NCBI GenBank assembly: GCA_016844295.1
Contig: JAENIV010000008.1
Location: 1 to 30,353, forward strand
Source of the DNA: Candidatus Berkelbacteria bacterium
Lineage (GTDB): Bacteria; Patescibacteriota; UBA1384; UBA12157; JAENIV01
Length of the DNA: 30,353 nt
Direction: 5' to 3'
Shown here piece after piece: positions 7,849 through 18,635 of this stretch (its first letter is position 1; every line of letters starts with the position of its first letter). Made by a program: the position numbers and the translations under genes. Below the pieces are notes generated by a model. It saw only the letters and a program-made list of their open reading frames with translations, searched no databases and was not told the DNA's origin.

Positions 7849-10071
7849 TTAAATAGATAATTCATAAATACTTTTATCATTTAGAACCCAGATTTTTCGT
7901 GCTTTTTGAGAAACGACAAAATCGGTAATTTTATTAAATTCATCTGGTAAAGCATATTGATGAATAAATTGACCTTCTTTGTCGAATTCTAAGATGCGTT
8001 TTTGATCTCCATCAAGTACATATATTGAAGGCGTGTCCGAGTCAGTAAATATTTTAATTGGTTTTGCTATTGTACTATATGGACTAGGAATATTTTTTAA
8101 ACTAAAATCCTGTTTCTTGCTTTTTTGTATTTTAATTATTTGACCATCATTTTTTAATACATAAATATTCCCATCAACAGCTAGAGAATTCGATTGTCTT
8201 AAATTTACGTTCACGGTCGAAATATATTCTTCCCCTTTTTGAAATTCAGTATTATTAGAAGAATGTTTATATATTTGACCAACAATTCCATCAAGAAGAT
8301 ATAAACTCCCGACATAACCGGCAATAGCGTTGGAGGTTTCCCATCTACCATCTGAAGAAATTTTTGTCTGTTCGATTTTTTTAGTACTAACATCGAGGGT
8401 AAATACATTTTGATTATTAGTATATAAGTATATAGAGATGTCCGAGCGTGTCCCGGTAATAAAATTGCCTTTATTTTTAGGGATAGAAGCAATTTTTGAA
8501 GGAGTACCACTAACAATATTACCTTCATAAATGTCAGAGTCAGAAATAATATATGCTTGCCCGGAAACAACATACAAACCTTTACCTGTATCAGGAATTG
8601 TAATACTTGGTTTCAAATCGATATATCTTGTAGTCGCGGTTAATTTATCTAATTCTGACTGGGAATTTTTAATGGTATTTTTAGCATCGTTGGCAACAAA
8701 TGAGTTATCAACAATCGTTCGGGCTTTATCTATCGAAAAAGCAAACTTTTCTTTAGCTTGCTCTTGGTTTCCTGTTGAAAGTAGATTTTTACCGTCATTG
8801 CCCGCGGCAATGGCCTCATTAAGAATTTTTTGGGCTTGGAAATTACCAACATTATTGCCACGATTTTTGATTACCACCGTAACAATAATAATTAAAATAA
8901 GAAGAATCGCACCGAGAATATAAAGATATTTACGTCTTTTGCGATCTCTCGCAGAATCGACAATCCAACTTATTAAATTCAGAATTTTTATCCAGATCCA
9001 ATTTAGTATTTTTAAAATTATTGTCCAAGTATTTCTTCTGGTAATTTTCTTTTCTTTTTCTTGATTATAGTAATGGACGTATTCAGGAGAATATTTGACT
9101 TCCTCATCTTTTAGAAGACTATCATCTCGTTCCCCAGATAAAAATTCTTTATGAAAATTATCACCCCCTTCTTTAGCTGCAAAAGGTTGCGCATTAATAG
9201 GTATAGAAGGTTGACTCTTTTTTCGTTTAGATATTCTTTCTTTTATCTTTAGATATGAATTATTAAAAAATTTGCCCAAACTTTGGTTAACCGGTATAAG
9301 GATTTTCCCAATTTGCCCAAAAACTTTCCACGCTGATTCAGATGATTTATCAAGATAAAAAACATTCCCTAAATTTTCTGTAATTGGTTTACTAGATACA
9401 TCTTCTTTAAGGCCTAGACGGATAATAATTAAATTTACGTTTTTAACTTTATCTTTACGTAATAATTTAATAATCTGCATGGCTGCTAAGGACGGTGGGT
9501 TCATGCTAATAATTTGACGTAGTGCCTCTAAAGATAAGTGTTCGAATAACTCTTTGTTTGAAAGCAATATACTATCTTGTTCTTTAAGTTCACCAGAAAT
9601 TATATTAGTAAAAGTTTTTAAAGGATGTGGTTCAACGGGCCCTGTCATTCCTTCTGTCAAGTGATTAATTTTACCATCTCTGAAAATAAATACCTCAGAT
9701 TGTCCGCTTGTGGATAAGTGAAGACTATTACCGACAATAACAGAGGTTACCCCGTTTAGATTGCCGATCCAATCAGTTTCCCCATTTTGAGTAATTTGGG
9801 CTAAATCCTCATTGACTTTTTTTAACGATTCTTCAAAATTTACAAGATCTGAAGTGCTTCCGCCTCGATAATAGTACTTAACAAAATTGTTTATTACCAT
9901 TTGGCCAACTTGCGCGGTCGGAAACCACGGAGAAAGCATTTCAATACAAGTAAAAATCTCGCCCATACCTTTTTGGGTAAGATTATCGCTTGTGTGGTGC
10001 TGACAGGTGAGGAATCTATCAGGAAGTTTTCCAGAATTAGTTATTCTCGCAAATTGGATTTCGTATGCCAT
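7849..10071 (-). CDS. Large membrane-anchored protein: degenerate PP2C-like N-terminal domain, TM helix, C-terminal beta-propeller-like region
   Basis: N-terminal GELKEQDSILLSNKELF resembles the PP2C/SpoIIE fold. TM segment YLYILGAILLILIIIVTVVI. C-terminal repeats such as LAVDGNIYVL, IYVLDGDQKRILEFDKEGQF resemble NHL-type blades. Confidence 0.65.
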   Translation of the reverse strand: MAYEIQFARITNSGKLPDRFLTCQHHTSDNLTQKGMGEIFTCIEMLSPWFPTAQVGQMVINNFVKYYYRGGSTSDLVNFEESLKKVNEDLAQITQNGETDWIGNLNGVTSVIVGNSLHLSTSGQSEVFIFRDGKINHLTEGMTGPVEPHPLKTFTNIISGELKEQDSILLSNKELFEHLSLEALRQIISMNPPSLAAMQIIKLLRKDKVKNVNLIIIRLGLKEDVSSKPITENLGNVFYLDKSSESAWKVFGQIGKILIPVNQSLGKFFNNSYLKIKERISKRKKSQPSIPINAQPFAAKEGGDNFHKEFLSGERDDSLLKDEEVKYSPEYVHYYNQEKEKKITRRNTWTIILKILNWIWIKILNLISWIVDSARDRKRRKYLYILGAILLILIIIVTVVIKNRGNNVGNFQAQKILNEAIAAGNDGKNLLSTGNQEQAKEKFAFSIDKARTIVDNSFVANDAKNTIKNSQSELDKLTATTRYIDLKPSITIPDTGKGLYVVSGQAYIISDSDIYEGNIVSGTPSKIASIPKNKGNFITGTRSDISIYLYTNNQNVFTLDVSTKKIEQTKISSDGRWETSNAIAGYVGSLYLLDGIVGQIYKHSSNNTEFQKGEEYISTVNVNLRQSNSLAVDGNIYVLKNDGQIIKIQKSKKQDFSLKNIPSPYSTIAKPIKIFTDSDTPSIYVLDGDQKRILEFDKEGQFIHQYALPDEFNKITDFVVSQKARKIWVLNDKSIYELSI

Positions 10072-10170
10072 AGTTTAGATTCTGATAAATCTTTTCAATT
10101 AACTCCAAAAAAAATCAATGTAGGTAAGTACCTAATGTATTTATTATACATTATCTTGGTCTAAAGCAAA

Positions 10171-10323
10171 TCGGGATGGCGAGACTCGAACTCGCGACCT
10201 TCCGCCCAAATTCGGGGCGACTGGATTCGAACCAGCGGTCTCCAGACCCCCAGCCTGGCGCTTTACCAACTAAGCTACGCCCCGAATTTTTGGCGGACAC
10301 ACTACCAACTGTGCTACATCCCG
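10171..10323 (-). ncRNA. Outer tRNA-Pro-like shell whose anticodon loop is replaced by a complete tRNA-Pro(GGG). 5' half 10323-10293, 3' half 10205-10171
   Basis: Acceptor CGGGATG/CATCCCG + A73; D-arm GCAC-AGTTGGTA-GTGT; anticodon stem TCCGC/GCGGA; variable loop AGGTC; T-arm GCGAG-TTCGAGT-CTCGC. Confidence 0.85.
10212..10284 (-). tRNA. tRNA-Pro(GGG), nested; CCA not encoded
   Basis: 73-nt cloverleaf: CGGGGCG/CGCCCCG, GCTT-AGTTGGTA-AAGC, CCAGG-CTGGGGG-TCTGG, GCTGG-TTCGAAT-CCAGT, A73. Confidence 0.95.
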
Positions 10324-10329
10324 TAAATA

Positions 10330-10962
10330 TTAAAGATTTAATAGGGCAGAAAGCATATCGGGCCTTGCTGTGATAAAAATAAAAAAATTAAAAATAACCT
10401 TGGTTTCGATTAAAGAAATTAGGCCGGTAAAAAATATCACGAAGACCAAGATAAACATGCCAAATTGCTGCAAAAACAAATATATTTGCTCTGGTAAGAA
10501 AAGACTTAAAATTTTAGAACCATCCAGCGGAGGTATGGGCAGAAAGTTAAATACCATTAATAAAAGGTTAAAAAATACTAAAGCACTGATAAATAAACTG
10601 ACTATCTCAGGCATCGGTACAAGGCGAAGGATAAGTCCGAATACAACAGCCAAGATTAAATTGCTCATCGGTCCAGCCAAAGATACTGTCAGATTATCTA
10701 ATTTTGGATTGGCAAAATTATTCGGATTGACAATTACTGGTTTACCCCAACCAAAACCCACGAGTAATAAAAATATTGACCCATAAATGTCTAGGTGCGC
10801 AAGGGGGTTCAGCGACATTCTCCCCATTAATTTAGATGTTGAATCACCGAAACTATTGGCAGCCCAAGAATGGGCAAATTCGTGAAAAGTAATGGCGACT
10901 AATAGCGACAAAATGATGGCGGTAAAGTGTAGCGGTGATGAAAATAGTAATAATATAATCAT
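10330..10962 (-). CDS. Site-2 protease family (peptidase M50); start reassigned to ATG at 10962
   Basis: HEFAH (HExxH), NPLAHLD, GFGWGKPV, AGPMSN, FNFLPIPPLDG. The longer ORF-track start (11145) overlaps rpmB on the opposite strand. Confidence 0.9.
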   Translation of the reverse strand: MIILLLFSSPLHFTAIILSLLVAITFHEFAHSWAANSFGDSTSKLMGRMSLNPLAHLDIYGSIFLLLVGFGWGKPVIVNPNNFANPKLDNLTVSLAGPMSNLILAVVFGLILRLVPMPEIVSLFISALVFFNLLLMVFNFLPIPPLDGSKILSLFLPEQIYLFLQQFGMFILVFVIFFTGLISLIETKVIFNFFIFITARPDMLSALLNL

Positions 10963-10974
10963 GGTATATGTTAA

Positions 10975-11003
10975 TTGACGTATCTGCTTTTGTATGATAC
11001 CAT
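10975..11003 (+). promoter_or_regulatory. Putative sigma70 promoter for rpmB
   Basis: TTGACG (10975-10980), 17-nt spacer, TACCAT (10998-11003) preceded by TGn. Confidence 0.55.
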
Positions 11004-11037
11004 ATAAAAGTATCAAGATAAAACTAAAGAGGTTAAT

Positions 11038-11205
11038 ATGACTACTTGCCAAGTTTGCGGTCGCAGTCCAAGAGTAGGTTATAATCGGCCAAACTCTCAA
11101 CATCGTACAAAGAGAAAAATTTATCCAAACATCCAAAAAAATCATGGCAAAAATATTTGCATGGGTTGTTTAAGATCTGCGAATCGCAATACTTCTAAAA
11201 ACTAA
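11038..11205 (+). CDS. rpmB: 50S ribosomal protein bL28, zinc-binding (C+) form; 55 aa, absent from the ORF track
   Basis: Manual translation MTTCQVCGRSPRVGYNRPNSQHRTKRKIYPNIQKNHGKNICMGCLRSANRNTSKN*. CxxC...CxxC plus the TKR..PN motif; AAGAGG RBS upstream. Confidence 0.92.
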   Translation: MTTCQVCGRSPRVGYNRPNSQHRTKRKIYPNIQKNHGKNICMGCLRSANRNTSKN

Positions 11206-13799: not shown

Positions 13800-13999
13800 G
13801 CCGGGTTAGCCCCGGTTTGATAATCAAACTAGGTAAACTCCGCAGTCTGCCGAGATAGCGAAGTGGCCAAACGCATCTGACTGTAAATCAGACGCCCTTG
13901 TGGCTTCGGGGGTTCGAATCCCTCTCTCGGCACCAATCCTGGCGGAGTTCATCCCGGAACTAAGTTGAGGGAGGAGTGCAAATCTCTCGCTCGGCACCA
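13800..13999 (+). ncRNA. Outer tRNA-Tyr-like shell enclosing tRNA-Tyr(GTA)
   Basis: Acceptor GCCGGGT/GCTCGGC + A + CCA. Clamp helix AACTCCGC (13836-13843)/GCGGAGTT (13942-13949). Variable-arm hairpin GTTC-ATCCCG-GAAC. Bulged T-arm GAGGAG-TGCAAAT-CTCTC. D region replaced by palindrome GGTTTGAT-A-ATCAAACT. Confidence 0.7.
13849..13935 (+). tRNA. tRNA-Tyr(GTA), nested; CCA encoded
   Basis: GCCGAGA/TCTCGGC, TCTGA-CTGTAAA-TCAGA, long variable arm, GGGGG-TTCGAAT-CCCTC, A-CCA. Confidence 0.96.
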
Positions 14000-14352: not shown

Positions 14353-14569
14353 GGGGGTGTGCGAATGCTGGCAACCTTCAATGGGTGCTGGCAAAGCCAG
14401 TACAACGGTCTGGATGCCGGTCTTAACTCATCCTGCTGGGAGCTTAGTTAAGTGGTATAACGGAGGTCTCCAAAACCTCGGTCGGGGGTTCGATTCCCTC
14501 AGCTCCTGCCAAAATGAGTTAAGACGCGCAAAACCGTAGACCGGGGTTCGATTCCCTGCACCCCTGCCA
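14353..14569 (+). ncRNA. Outer tRNA-Trp-like shell enclosing tRNA-Trp(CCA)
   Basis: Acceptor GGGGGTG/CACCCCT + G + CCA. Anticodon stem ACGGT (14405-14409)/ACCGT (14533-14537). T-arm CGGGG-TTCGATT-CCCTG. D-like hairpin GTGCTGGC-AAA-GCCAGTAC. Perfect 12-bp inverted repeat 14420-14431/14514-14525 around the inner tRNA. Confidence 0.8.
14438..14511 (+). tRNA. tRNA-Trp(CCA), nested; CCA end encoded
   Basis: GGGAGCT/AGCTCCT, GTTA-AGTGGTA-TAAC, GAGGT-CTCCAAA-ACCTC, GGGGG-TTCGATT-CCCTC, G-CCA. Confidence 0.96.
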
Positions 14570-14646: not shown

Positions 14647-16923
14647 TTGTTTTTGAATATTAATACAGATAAAAGCCAAAAACGCCTATTCGATGTTCTT
14701 CTTGAAAATGGAAAAATAAATCCGCAAAACTCTCAATCTTTAAGACTGTTGTCAAACCAAGAATTAGACAACAGGCTTAGATCTCAAAATATAGTTTCTG
14801 ATGAAGATATTAATAAGGGATACTCGAGTATTTTAAATATTCCATACGTTGATCTCAAAGACAAAACAATCCTCAGGGAAATTTTAAATATTATTCCTGA
14901 AAATTTAGCCCAGGAATATAAAATAATTGCTTATGATCAAAAAGAAAATATCTTGAAAGTGGCGATTGCTAACCCAGGTAAACTCACAAGCAATCTTGAA
15001 AGAACTCTTAATGATATTAAGGCAAAAAAGAATATCAATATTGAAATTGCCATAACATCAATGGGGAATCTCAACAGCGCTTTAAGTCAATATCGAAATA
15101 TTAAGGAAGAAAAAACCATTCCGGAAATTAATGTTGAAATTCAATCTCCACAGCCTGCTATGGCTATGTCAACAAATACATTAAAAACAGTCGATTTGGA
15201 AAAAATACAAATACCCTTTGATGTTATTTCTAAATTCCCGGAAGATATTGCTCGCAAATATCAAATGGTCGTTTTCGAGGCGCCCCATTCGTCTTTTATT
15301 AAAGTTGCTGTCGCCGATCCTGATGATAAAAAAGTTAAAGAAATTTTAGAATTTGTCCGTGAAAAAAATGATATCGGGATTGAAGAGTATAAATCTACTC
15401 CCGGTCAAATCCATCTGGCCATGCAATACTATCAACCTCCGAAACCTGCAGTTTCAGCGTCTGTAGCAGTGCCAGCCACGTCTGTTCCCATTCAACAAGA
15501 AGTTGAAGAAAAGCCCAGGCAATTTGTTCCCAAGCCTCAAGCCCCGCTACCTCAGACAATACCGCTGAAACAAGAAGAAATGCCTATTAAAAAAACAGAT
15601 GACGAAACTCCTGAAATTAAACGAGAGGAAAAAGTTCCTGAGGTACAAAGTAAAATTGCGGTTACGCAACCAATTTTAAATCCCGAAGAAGGTGATTTAG
15701 ATAAATATCTAGGAATGGAAATCAAAGAAATAGGGGATTTATTGGCAATTGCTGAAGATAGTAACATCCCAAAAACTTTAGCTGCCGCGATTGCCTTAGC
15801 TGTTCGACGTAAGGCTTCAGACATCCACGTAGAACCAGCCGAAAAGAATATGCGAATCCGTTTCAGAGTTGATGGGATTTTGCGCGATATTATTAAACTG
15901 CCTTTGGAGGAACAACCGGCAATTATTTCTAGAATCAAAATTTTAGCCAAATTAAAAATCGATGAATCGCGCATTCCTCAAGATGGCCGTTTCGATTGTT
16001 CGACAGCCGGTCATCAAATAGATTTAAGAATCTCAACTTTGCCAACTGTTCATGGTGAAAAGGCTGCCATGAGAATCTTAGATAAATCCTTGAAAATGTA
16101 TACCATGGAAGAATTGGGGATAACAGGAAGGGGTTTAAAAATTCTCACGGAAAACATTGATAAACCTTACGGAGTGGTACTCTCTACCGGACCTACTGGA
16201 TCGGGTAAATCAACAACTTTGTATGCTATATTAAATCGAATTTCCACCGCCTCGGTAAATATTGTTACCCTGGAGGATCCCGTTGAATATGAGGTTCCGG
16301 GGATTAATCAATGTCAGATAAAGCCAAAAATCGGTTTTACATTCGCCAATGGTCTAAGAAGCGTTCTCCGCCAGGATCCGAATATTATTATGGTTGGGGA
16401 AATCAGAGACTCGGAAACGGCTTCTTTGGCAACCCATGCTGCTTTGACCGGTCACTTAGTATTATCCACTTTACACACGAATGACGCCACCGGGGCTCTT
16501 CCTAGACTTATCAACATGGGGGTTGAACCGTTTTTAATTACTTCATCAATAAATTGTGTTATTGGCCAAAGATTGGTGAGACGGCTCTGTCAAAAATGTA
16601 AAAAACCCGCACATATTCCTGACCCTGTTTTTAATGAAATTGAAGAACAATTGGCCAGATTTAATTTGCCAAAGCCTTATCAATTTTTTGAAGGACGCGG
16701 ATGTCCGGAATGTGATCAAGGGTATAAAGGAAGAGTCGGCATTTATGAAGTATTTGCTATGAGCGATAAAATTGAATCGCTAGCAATTGACCGTCGGCCT
16801 GCTTCAGAGATCCGAGAAGCAGCAATTAAGGAAGGCATGGTAACCATGAAACATGACGGACTTTTCAAAGCCCTTAAGGGCATCACAAGCGTTAACGAAG
16901 TCTTAAGAGTTGTAACAATATAA
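14647..16923 (+). CDS. pilB: Type IV pilus assembly ATPase (PilB/GspE family) with duplicated N-terminal domain
   Basis: ASDIHVEP, Walker A GPTGSGKST, TLEDPVEY, LRQDPNIIMVGEIRD, TGHLVLSTLHTN, tetracysteine CQKC...CPEC. Confidence 0.95.
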   Translation: MFLNINTDKSQKRLFDVLLENGKINPQNSQSLRLLSNQELDNRLRSQNIVSDEDINKGYSSILNIPYVDLKDKTILREILNIIPENLAQEYKIIAYDQKENILKVAIANPGKLTSNLERTLNDIKAKKNINIEIAITSMGNLNSALSQYRNIKEEKTIPEINVEIQSPQPAMAMSTNTLKTVDLEKIQIPFDVISKFPEDIARKYQMVVFEAPHSSFIKVAVADPDDKKVKEILEFVREKNDIGIEEYKSTPGQIHLAMQYYQPPKPAVSASVAVPATSVPIQQEVEEKPRQFVPKPQAPLPQTIPLKQEEMPIKKTDDETPEIKREEKVPEVQSKIAVTQPILNPEEGDLDKYLGMEIKEIGDLLAIAEDSNIPKTLAAAIALAVRRKASDIHVEPAEKNMRIRFRVDGILRDIIKLPLEEQPAIISRIKILAKLKIDESRIPQDGRFDCSTAGHQIDLRISTLPTVHGEKAAMRILDKSLKMYTMEELGITGRGLKILTENIDKPYGVVLSTGPTGSGKSTTLYAILNRISTASVNIVTLEDPVEYEVPGINQCQIKPKIGFTFANGLRSVLRQDPNIIMVGEIRDSETASLATHAALTGHLVLSTLHTNDATGALPRLINMGVEPFLITSSINCVIGQRLVRRLCQKCKKPAHIPDPVFNEIEEQLARFNLPKPYQFFEGRGCPECDQGYKGRVGIYEVFAMSDKIESLAIDRRPASEIREAAIKEGMVTMKHDGLFKALKGITSVNEVLRVVTI

Positions 16924-18118: not shown

Positions 18119-18194
18119 GCAAAGCTCAATAAATTATTCTAATTAACTTAATTATTCTAATTTCTAATCAAACCCTAATGATAATGAAGAGTAA

Positions 18195-18635
18195 TGTCAT
18201 TCTGAGGCGTAGCCGAAGAATCTCCCATGAATATGGGTTGGTATGAGTAAAAAATATTACGTTTATATCGCTACGAATAAATCCAACACTCTTTATACTG
18301 GTGTAACTAACGATATACAAAGAAGAATGTATGAACATAAATTTAAGTTTATCAAGGGATTTACAGAAAAATATAACATTAATAAATTAGTATATTTTCA
18401 GGAATTTAATAATCCGAATGAAGCAATTACAGTTGAAAAGAAGATAAAAGGTTGGACAAGAGCAAAAAAGATAAACTTAATAAAAAGTTTGAATCCCACC
18501 TTTAAGGACTTACTTGAGTCATGTTGAACAATCGTGTAATTCTGGAGCATTGTCATGTTGAGCGAAGCGAAACATCTCTGGCGAATGCCAGTTCTCAAAC
18601 AAGTTGAGAGATCCTTCGTTTCACTCAGGATGACA
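18195..18635 (+). mobile_element. GIY-YIG nuclease cassette bounded by REP-like repeats (three copies)
   Basis: TGTCATTCTGAGGCGTAGCCGAAGAATCTC (18195-18224) and TGTCATGTTGAGCGAAGCGAAACATCTC (18551-18578) in forward orientation; inverted copy GAGATCCTTCGTTTCACTCAGGATGACA (18608-18635). Confidence 0.7.
18243..18527 (+). CDS. Small GIY-YIG nuclease family protein
   Basis: YYVYI...LYTGVTNDIQRRMYEHK...FTEKYNINKLVYFQEF...AITVEKKIKGWTRAKKINLI. Confidence 0.92.
   Translation: MSKKYYVYIATNKSNTLYTGVTNDIQRRMYEHKFKFIKGFTEKYNINKLVYFQEFNNPNEAITVEKKIKGWTRAKKINLIKSLNPTFKDLLESC

Follow-up and report, generated by a model that had tools for sequence, protein, structure and literature searches.

In Archaea, transfer RNA (tRNA) introns and split tRNAs are cut by EndA at a bulge-helix-bulge motif and joined by RtcB, and the intron of pre-tRNA-Trp contains a C/D box RNA. 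Bacterial group I introns of tRNA genes hold a ribozyme core of ~200 nucleotides (nt) or more in the anticodon loop. Integrative elements which target tRNA genes are kilobases long, carry integrases, are associated with direct repeats and usually duplicate only the 3' part of the gene. Here, a different arrangement is described for contig JAENIV010000008.1 of Candidatus Berkelbacteria bacterium (GenBank assembly GCA_016844295.1, genome G000): a complete tRNA-Pro(GGG) gene (the inner gene) is situated on the minus strand, enclosed by the 5' and 3' halves of another proline tRNA gene (the shell). Shell and inner gene together are termed the nest, and the whole stretch analyzed, 30,353 nt in length, is termed the window. 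No relevant description of tRNA-in-tRNA nests, of tRNA introns in these bacteria or of GIY-YIG genes tied to tRNA genes was found in the literature.

Two described GIY-YIG nuclease systems come close to parts of what was found in G000. SegB of phage T4 is, according to PMC2330249, a free-standing GIY-YIG homing endonuclease in a tRNA gene cluster; its site includes the conserved T-stem-loop, and it spreads together with neighbouring tRNA genes into genomes without SegB. A GIY-YIG gene lodged among tRNA genes is the feature shared with G000. However, SegB is placed between tRNA genes and creates no tRNA-in-tRNA nest, whereas the G000 proteins are putative single-domain nucleases, 85-118 amino acids (aa) in length, and the focal locus is without a nuclease. 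The Ssn family comprises GIY-YIG proteins of ~90 aa, whose genes are flanked by 20-50-nt SRM/NTS hairpin repeats scattered in the genome, and cutting is reported to persist when the hairpin loop is exchanged or lengthened (Chenal et al. 2025, PMC11893778). In the features compared, namely size and hairpins, the G000 set may be akin to Ssn (tiny single-domain open reading frames (ORFs), hairpin flanks of several ORFs and scattered GC palindromes); tRNA genes, and hence a tRNA inside a tRNA, as well as these bacteria are unmentioned in PMC11893778. By analogy, the loop tolerance of Ssn would fit an inverted repeat, here called clamp, that holds a tRNA in its loop.

The nest comprises 153 nt (10323..10171) and was modelled as a cloverleaf enclosing a cloverleaf, in which 43 of 43 nested pairs are standard according to an explicit structure check. 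An earlier note on this DNA had proposed that a complete tRNA-Pro(GGG) occupies the anticodon loop of another tRNA body. ARAGORN (10211-10285), the Rfam tRNA model (67.3 bits, 10212-10284) and the 43 pairs bear this out, and the positions given there were right in essentials; both programs call the inner gene only. It is confirmed that a complete, working proline tRNA gene is enclosed by two halves of a second one which lacks the anticodon arm. The inner gene has a full cloverleaf, the conserved tertiary letters and the proline identity set, and it is the sole GGG isoacceptor of the assembly. For bacterial ProRS, this identity set consists of C1-G72, A73, G35, G36 and G37.

In the shell, the anticodon arm is replaced by a 6-base-pair (bp) stem, TCCGCC/GGCGGA, enclosing an 85-nt insert (the 73-nt tRNA plus 12 nt of linkers). 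Inward from the 6-bp stem, the junctions continue with a 2x1 internal loop and then with an A-T helix of 5 bp. The quasi-continuous helix through AAATT/AATTT postulated before is indeed present, except that its last pair is borrowed from the inner tRNA by using the discriminator A10212. The two shell halves could stay held together by 7 + 6 + 4 bp, and the anticodon is absent from both. When the shell was tested as a functional tRNA, no anticodon arm with U33 and an anticodon was detected; likewise, no junction yields U33 and a 7-nt loop, in agreement with the prior statement that simple excision does not give a canonical tRNA. Free folding of the nest gave -73.9 kcal/mol (z = -5.5; none of 200 shuffles as stable), and the unconstrained fold recovered the outer acceptor, the clamp stem, the inner acceptor and both T arms of the explicit model. 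A bacterial group I intron was tested as well; the 85-nt insert is too short for the core, and the Rfam scan of the window gave four tRNAs only. There is no ORF within the insert, and the nest is flanked by an M50 family gene and a 740-aa ORF. A scan of 10000-10500 for consensus promoters and terminators gave none on the minus strand.

For comparison with other genomes, a covariance model of the nest (R1) was built from the explicit structure, as MAFFT/RNAalifold of two nests misaligned the shell D arm and the anticodon stem. R1 scored 199 bits for the focal nest and 134 bits for a nest in G002, a member of another genus of the same family. The G002 nest is situated at the same place between the M50 gene and a homologue of the 740-aa ORF and is 77% identical to the focal one. 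Applied to a sample of 151 genomes of the class, R1 additionally found G111 (two contigs, 109 bits), G056 (89 bits) and G122 (84 bits).

An assembly artefact, in which separate tRNA-Pro genes or strains were mis-joined, was considered; two mis-joined genes had been named in the earlier note as the refuting outcome. The metagenome assembly is fragmented (91 contigs), tRNA words are common to other organisms, and the X2 Logan contigs break inside the inner tRNA. Nevertheless, exact contigs from X2, an independent freshwater study, cross both the 3' junction (9922-10230) and the 5' junction (10213-10370), and in run X1, possibly the source sample itself, one contig extends over this whole stretch. 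Further, clamp and linkers fit neither parent type, and the separately assembled G002, G111 and, with a decayed shell, G056 share the architecture. The chance of a mis-join is thus negligible.

Across the class, the M50 gene, tRNA-Pro(GGG) and the long ORF follow each other in this order, in most cases with a single plain tRNA, and the 740-aa ORF is conserved beside tRNA-Pro(GGG). The syntenic site is polymorphic, being nested in G000 and G002 and plain in G003, G006, G007, many other class members and a relative present in run X8. The acceptor, D, variable and T arms of the G000 shell (anticodon arm omitted) match the plain syntenic tRNA-Pro(GGG) of G006 at 54 of 56 positions, namely 24/26 in the 5' half without the clamp, with the last 30 nt of the 3' half identical. 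G006 represents the sister genus (M50 proteins 79% identical to those of G000). The inner tRNA, on the other hand, resembles the plain genes of G007, G003 and others; the X8 relative contains the inner sequence (73/73) as plain syntenic gene, with 27 other letters replacing the 3' half of the shell. Compared with each other, shell and inner gene of the focal nest differ in the acceptor, D and T stems at many paired positions. Roles can also be swapped: the shell of G002 and the inner gene of G056 share 91% identity, the G111 shell resembles the G122 inner gene, and the G111 inner gene in turn has its match in the 3' shell half of G122. Such swaps fit cassettes which would move the tRNA of one lineage into the gene of another.

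With respect to the state of the shell, the description as near-undegraded holds, and the match to G006 is consistent with a recent origin. The suggested descent from tRNA-Pro(UGG) is not supported in view of the same match. Linkers are not conserved (AAAAATT / ATTTG in G000 versus the wholly different CACCAAT / ACTTAT in G002), and the likeness of TTTGG to a UGG loop is a coincidence because the G002 linkers are unrelated. The stem TCCGCC/GGCGGA is common to G000 and G002, with TCCACC/GGTGGA in G056. Since these stems are unlike the proline anticodon stems of the relatives, and TCCGCC/GGCGGA resembles the CCCGCC/GGCGGG clamps of other nests, the apparent anticodon stem of the shell looks like a GC clamp brought by the insert rather than a part of the shell.

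The assembly already contains tRNA-Pro(UGG) (C84:373-448) and tRNA-Pro(CGG) (C84:17472-17545) besides the inner tRNA-Pro(GGG). The shell is therefore redundant and needs no repair or editing, which had been thought necessary if a UGG gene were missing. A reasonably likely explanation, and the one preferred here, is that the focal locus is the remnant, without nuclease, of a small invasive cassette which targets tRNA genes and carries a replacement tRNA, with a working inner gene and a shell which died only recently as a gene. The tRNA-Pro(GGG) gene resident in the lineage would have been split to become the present shell, its anticodon arm being replaced by the clamp TCCGCC...GGCGGA enclosing the linkers and a complete tRNA-Pro(GGG) that stems from a related lineage. 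The nest would be transcribed as a single RNA, from which RNase P and a 3' endonuclease would free the inner tRNA. CCA is not encoded in the inner gene; release would therefore be followed by tailing by the CCA-adding enzyme, and the inner tRNA would do the decoding. The two shell pieces, having no anticodon, would be by-products. Genes for an RNase P protein and an RNase Z-like protein are present in G000, the CCA-adding enzyme is represented by a fragment, and a fragment of the RNase P RNA is located at a contig end. On this explanation, the shell would look perfect because the invasion was recent and not because repair is needed. Integrative elements are comparable in that a tRNA gene is the target, function is restored by the sequence brought in and a partial duplicate is left, as at C77 and C86; the difference is that here a whole 73-nt tRNA, together with linkers of 12 nt in total, lies within an inverted repeat.

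Further nests in G000 were searched by cutting out each predicted tRNA and rerunning ARAGORN on the joined flanks, and by two further scans. The ARAGORN intron option was not used, since it produced nonsense calls and lost true tRNAs. About ten nests were found (Table 1), and the tRNAs are paired by the same amino acid. Under the preferred explanation, this strict matching would be expected: if the outer gene is destroyed by the insertion, a cassette persists only when it supplies the same tRNA. The shells of the Tyr and Pro(CGG) nests are decayed. The outer tRNA-Arg at C21 keeps the GCG anticodon arm, the T arm and CCA and is complete on paper once the insert is removed. At C85, a 29-nt repeat flanks the insert, and the anticodon arm of the shell is a 7-bp hairpin with a 3-nt loop. 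ARAGORN labels the C84 shell Ala(UGC), which was ruled out as C1-G72 and A73 are Pro-like.

Table 1. Position and description of the focal nest, its neighbours, further nests of G000 and a small nuclease gene; positions without contig name refer to the window.
Feature	Position	Strand	Evidence or details
Whole nest, tRNA-Pro-like shell around tRNA-Pro(GGG)	10171..10323	-	Sequence, 43 standard pairs, R1 199 bits
Shell 5' half	10292..10323	-	Acceptor 10323-10317 CGGGATG; D arm 10314-10299 GCAC/GTGT; G26 10298; clamp strand TCCGCC 10297-10292
5' linker AAAAATT	10285..10291	-	AAATT pairs with AATTT (10212-10208)
Inner tRNA-Pro(GGG), 73 nt	10212..10284	-	Anticodon 10251-10249; C1-G72, A73, G37; CCA not encoded
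3' linker ATTTG	10207..10211	-	Sequence; counterpart in G002 ACTTAT
Shell 3' half	10171..10206	-	Clamp GGCGGA; variable loop AGGTC; T arm GCGAG-TTCGAGT-CTCGC; acceptor CATCCCG; A73; no CCA
M50 (site-2 protease) family gene, upstream neighbour	10330..11145	-	Pfam PF02163, E 3.5e-15; ends 6 nt before shell
740-aa ORF, downstream neighbour, synteny marker	7849..10071	-	No Pfam match
tRNA-Tyr(GTA) 13849-13935 in decayed Tyr-like shell with own CCA end, clamp AACTCCGC/GCGGAGTT	13800..13999	+	Sequence
tRNA-Trp(CCA) 14438-14511 in shell with 12-bp clamp	14353..14569	+	R1 31.5 bits (full model), cut-out scans
Met nest	C17 7895-8100	-	Genome scan
Phe nest	C78 17965-18158	-	Genome scan
Ala-CGC nest	C91 2376-2583	+	Genome scan
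Arg-GCG nest, D-arm insert (GA|..|GC), clamp CCTGCCCGCC...GGCAGGCGGG	C21:5566-5747	+	Genome scan
Pro-CGG nest	C84		Genome scan
Val-UAC nest	C18		Genome scan
Ala-UGC nest, ribosomal RNA spacer, with GIY-YIG ORF	C85:3200-3660	-	Sequence
tRNA-Asp nest with GIY-YIG ORF	C77:4716-5114	-	Sequence
Small GIY-YIG ORF	18252..18476	+	PF01541, 57.1 bits; not beside called tRNA

G000 holds 14 small single-domain GIY-YIG ORFs (85-118 aa, PF01541), and nine of these are located at most 200 nt from a tRNA gene; random placement gave a mean of 0.4 and a maximum of 3 in 2000 trials. The ORF is found in or beside an insert at C77, C85, C86, C27, C58, C6, C33, C42 and C8. The loci at C77 (Asp) and C85 (Ala-UGC) are full-length versions, which comprise a shell piece or a duplicate of the tRNA 5' end, hairpins, a GIY-YIG ORF of ~90 codons and an intact tRNA. 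Several tRNA-linked ORFs adjoin short duplicates of the tRNA 5' end, hairpins flank several of the 14, and GC palindromes are scattered over the genome. A nuclease of this kind would be the candidate for making the cut in the tRNA gene, and the cassette may be mobile at the DNA level. The ORF in the window (18252-18476) is a member of the nuclease family linked to tRNA insertions; its flanks at 18190-18250 and 18560-18620 are hairpin repeats of the type GTCATTCTGAGG...CCGAAGAATC.

Instead of a mobile cassette, an in-place local duplication could have produced the focal nest, either by hairpin-driven template switching or by unequal recombination of tandem copies, followed by loss of the outer anticodon arm. 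Shell and inner gene are both of the tRNA-Pro(GGG) type, every nest pairs the same amino acid, and the focal locus is without a nuclease gene, all of which would agree with such an event. We regard it as rather unlikely: the stems in which the two genes differ, and their resemblance to the genes of different relatives, indicate that they are not recent copies of each other. Moreover, inserts of different families share the clamp TCCGCC/GGCGGA, or TCCACC/GGTGGA, as their boundary, motifs of the clamp are repeated throughout the genome and the phylum, and the full-length versions contain GIY-YIG genes.

To assess the wider occurrence, two T loops spaced 28-58 nt apart were used as a crude signature, which catches about half of the known nests and some matches which are not nests. 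The signature was present in 62 of 162 genomes of the class, compared to 15 matches in 14 genomes for a reversed-pattern control, and in 83 of 401 genomes sampled from the phylum. At 20 retrieved loci, the interruption of the outer tRNA gene falls in the D arm or at 34/35, 35/36 or 37/38, and the insert is a complete tRNA for that amino acid framed by a conserved GC clamp. Clamp sequences include CCTGCCCGCC...GGCAGGCGGG and, with the ends swapped, CCCGCCTGCC...GGCGGGCAGG, and the Gly nests have TCCATCCTCCG...CGGAGGACGGG; either orientation of the ends is thus seen, some loci are three-layered and some clamps are empty. In the Gly nests, the outer gene corresponds to the plain Gly(CCC) gene of G000, while the inner tRNAs are of other types and, along with nearly identical linkers, are common to distant families, which favours invasion. 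BLAST of the Trp nest in 60 relatives matched the inner tRNA only, and the cut-out scan there gave only artefacts from neighbouring tRNAs. The motif CCCCGA N4-8 GGCGGA N0-2 AGGTCGC in metagenome contigs gave no nest among the 120 matches listed, all being chance matches in high-GC DNA. For the motif GTCCGCC N5-9 CGGGGCGTAGC in genome contigs, the record titles among the matches listed mostly name high-GC taxa.

Another reading is that the inserts are removed from RNA. At the focal locus, the insert would be a true RNA intron of a new bacterial kind, with shell halves that are joined or act as a two-piece tRNA, so that one gene would yield two RNAs. Removal on paper restores canonical 7-nt anticodon loops in the better-preserved nests of relatives (Cys CTG|CAAA, Thr TTTG|TAA, Ala TTCGCA|T, Gly TTCC|CAA), the clamp helix holds the same U.G and C-A positions in both variants, and the outer halves of the Gly nests are conserved as well as the inner ones. 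Archaeal introns are similar in occupying several positions (D arm, 34/35, 35/36, 37/38), in halves that a helix draws together, in enclosing a second functional RNA and in moving between tRNA genes. Unlike those, the inserts reside in a bacterial host and are without the bulge-helix-bulge motif: hand check of the clamp in the better-preserved Thr nest gave no register with correct junctions. Neither the splicing endonuclease (PF01974) nor RtcB (PF01139) was found in the 92%-complete G000 assembly, and across the 162 class genomes the endonuclease is present in none and RtcB in four. The focal shell is without any anticodon arm, so a spliced product could not decode. Isolated copies of the same clamp exist outside tRNA genes and at contig ends, and its ends are found in both orientations; strict amino acid matching is expected if insertion kills the outer gene; and a recent insertion that did not duplicate its target would leave restorable loops just as well. 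An intron at the focal locus is therefore highly improbable. A broader version, in which the clamp-bounded inserts family-wide are a new bacterial tRNA intron that often carries a second tRNA and is spliced without EndA or RtcB, the focal Pro shell being a decayed member, is considered improbable as well, albeit less strongly so. If the inserts were introns of a splicing type, they would represent a new bacterial RNA processing pathway, which would be far more important than a cassette.

Several observations weigh against the cassette explanation, which is nevertheless preferred. At the focal nest itself, there is no nuclease gene in or beside the nest, and no target-site duplication marks an insertion. 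The sole run labelled RNA looked like DNA and was counted on this side, too. For Gly nests in other families, the outer halves are conserved like the inner tRNAs (0.81 versus 0.79) and retain the anticodon letters, which would hardly be expected of dead genes unless they were invaded recently. Finally, in an alignment fitted to the model, the shell helices are 93-96% paired over five nests from three families, with two-sided changes at 15 of 22 shell pairs. This retained pairing could reflect selection or, equally, recently killed copies of the working gene of each lineage. Decay is seen in G056, whose shell lost the T loop, and in G122, with mismatches in the acceptor and a 5' half which is not tRNA-like; these two shells speak for killed copies rather than selection.

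If selection maintained it, the shell would be a working part of the precursor, its tRNA-like ends and clamp helix recruiting RNase P, RNase Z and CCA addition, protecting the transcript or holding the inner tRNA for folding. Shell helices stay paired through compensatory changes in G000, G002, G111 and G056, the tertiary letters of T loop and D loop are retained in G000, G002 and G111, and the acceptor, the T arm and the clamp helix last longest while D arms go first. Yet most relatives use a plain tRNA-Pro(GGG) at the same site, shells have decayed in G056, G122 and the Tyr and Pro(CGG) nests of G000, and recency is the simpler account of near-identity to the working G006 gene. Nor is there a known need for such a scaffold, since determinants for RNase P and RNase Z are contained in the inner tRNA itself. 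We give this scaffold role some weight but hold it to be unlikely.

Should the preferred cassette explanation be true, tRNA genes of these ultra-small bacteria house selfish cassettes, which survive by replacing the gene they broke. This would explain the exchange of tRNA genes between lineages and would provide a concrete, testable target class for a large family of tiny GIY-YIG nucleases. For annotation, standard finders detect the inner gene only, leaving about ten shells uncalled in G000, and palindromes at tRNA genes probably break assemblies. The nests are also a natural experiment on the extra RNA load of a tRNA precursor.

Some further observations were made on clamps, nests and the tRNA set. 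A 45-nt GC palindrome (CCTGCCCGCC, AATCGCC...GGCGTCT core, GGCAGGCGGG) stands alone outside tRNA genes at C5 (~16620-16664), C31 (~1-27) and C26 (~1650-1697); two of these copies are located exactly at contig ends and, therefore, this repeat probably breaks the assembly. At C84:591-719 (plus strand), a tRNA-Arg(UCG) lies between inverted repeats of 11-12 bp (CCCGTAAAATTT / AAATTTACGGG) with no recognisable shell, which may be a clamp without a host gene. A D-loop hairpin with a stable tetraloop, fixed on its flanks as CTAT...ATCAG, is common to the Met (C17), Phe (C78) and Ala-CGC (C91) shells and absent from the rest of G000. Three-layer nests were noted for Ala, Val and Gly at L353 (G087:C13), L356 (G076:C25) and L351 (G160:C54), and the outermost layer looks most decayed. 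The Gly nest (L344-L352) was seen in nine genomes of five families (f17, f26, f29, f33 and f38) with the same insertion point TTCC|CAA, the same clamp and partly shared linkers. In G085, the Gly nest is followed by a nested tRNA-Thr(CGT), and G000 has a plain Gly-Thr pair (C77:5705-5853). Concerning the tRNA set of G000, Asn(GUU) and Thr(UGU) genes were not found in the 92%-complete assembly; Ile(UAU) is present, and there are only two plain CAU genes plus the Met shell. CCA is encoded in 31 of the 44 tRNA genes of G000.

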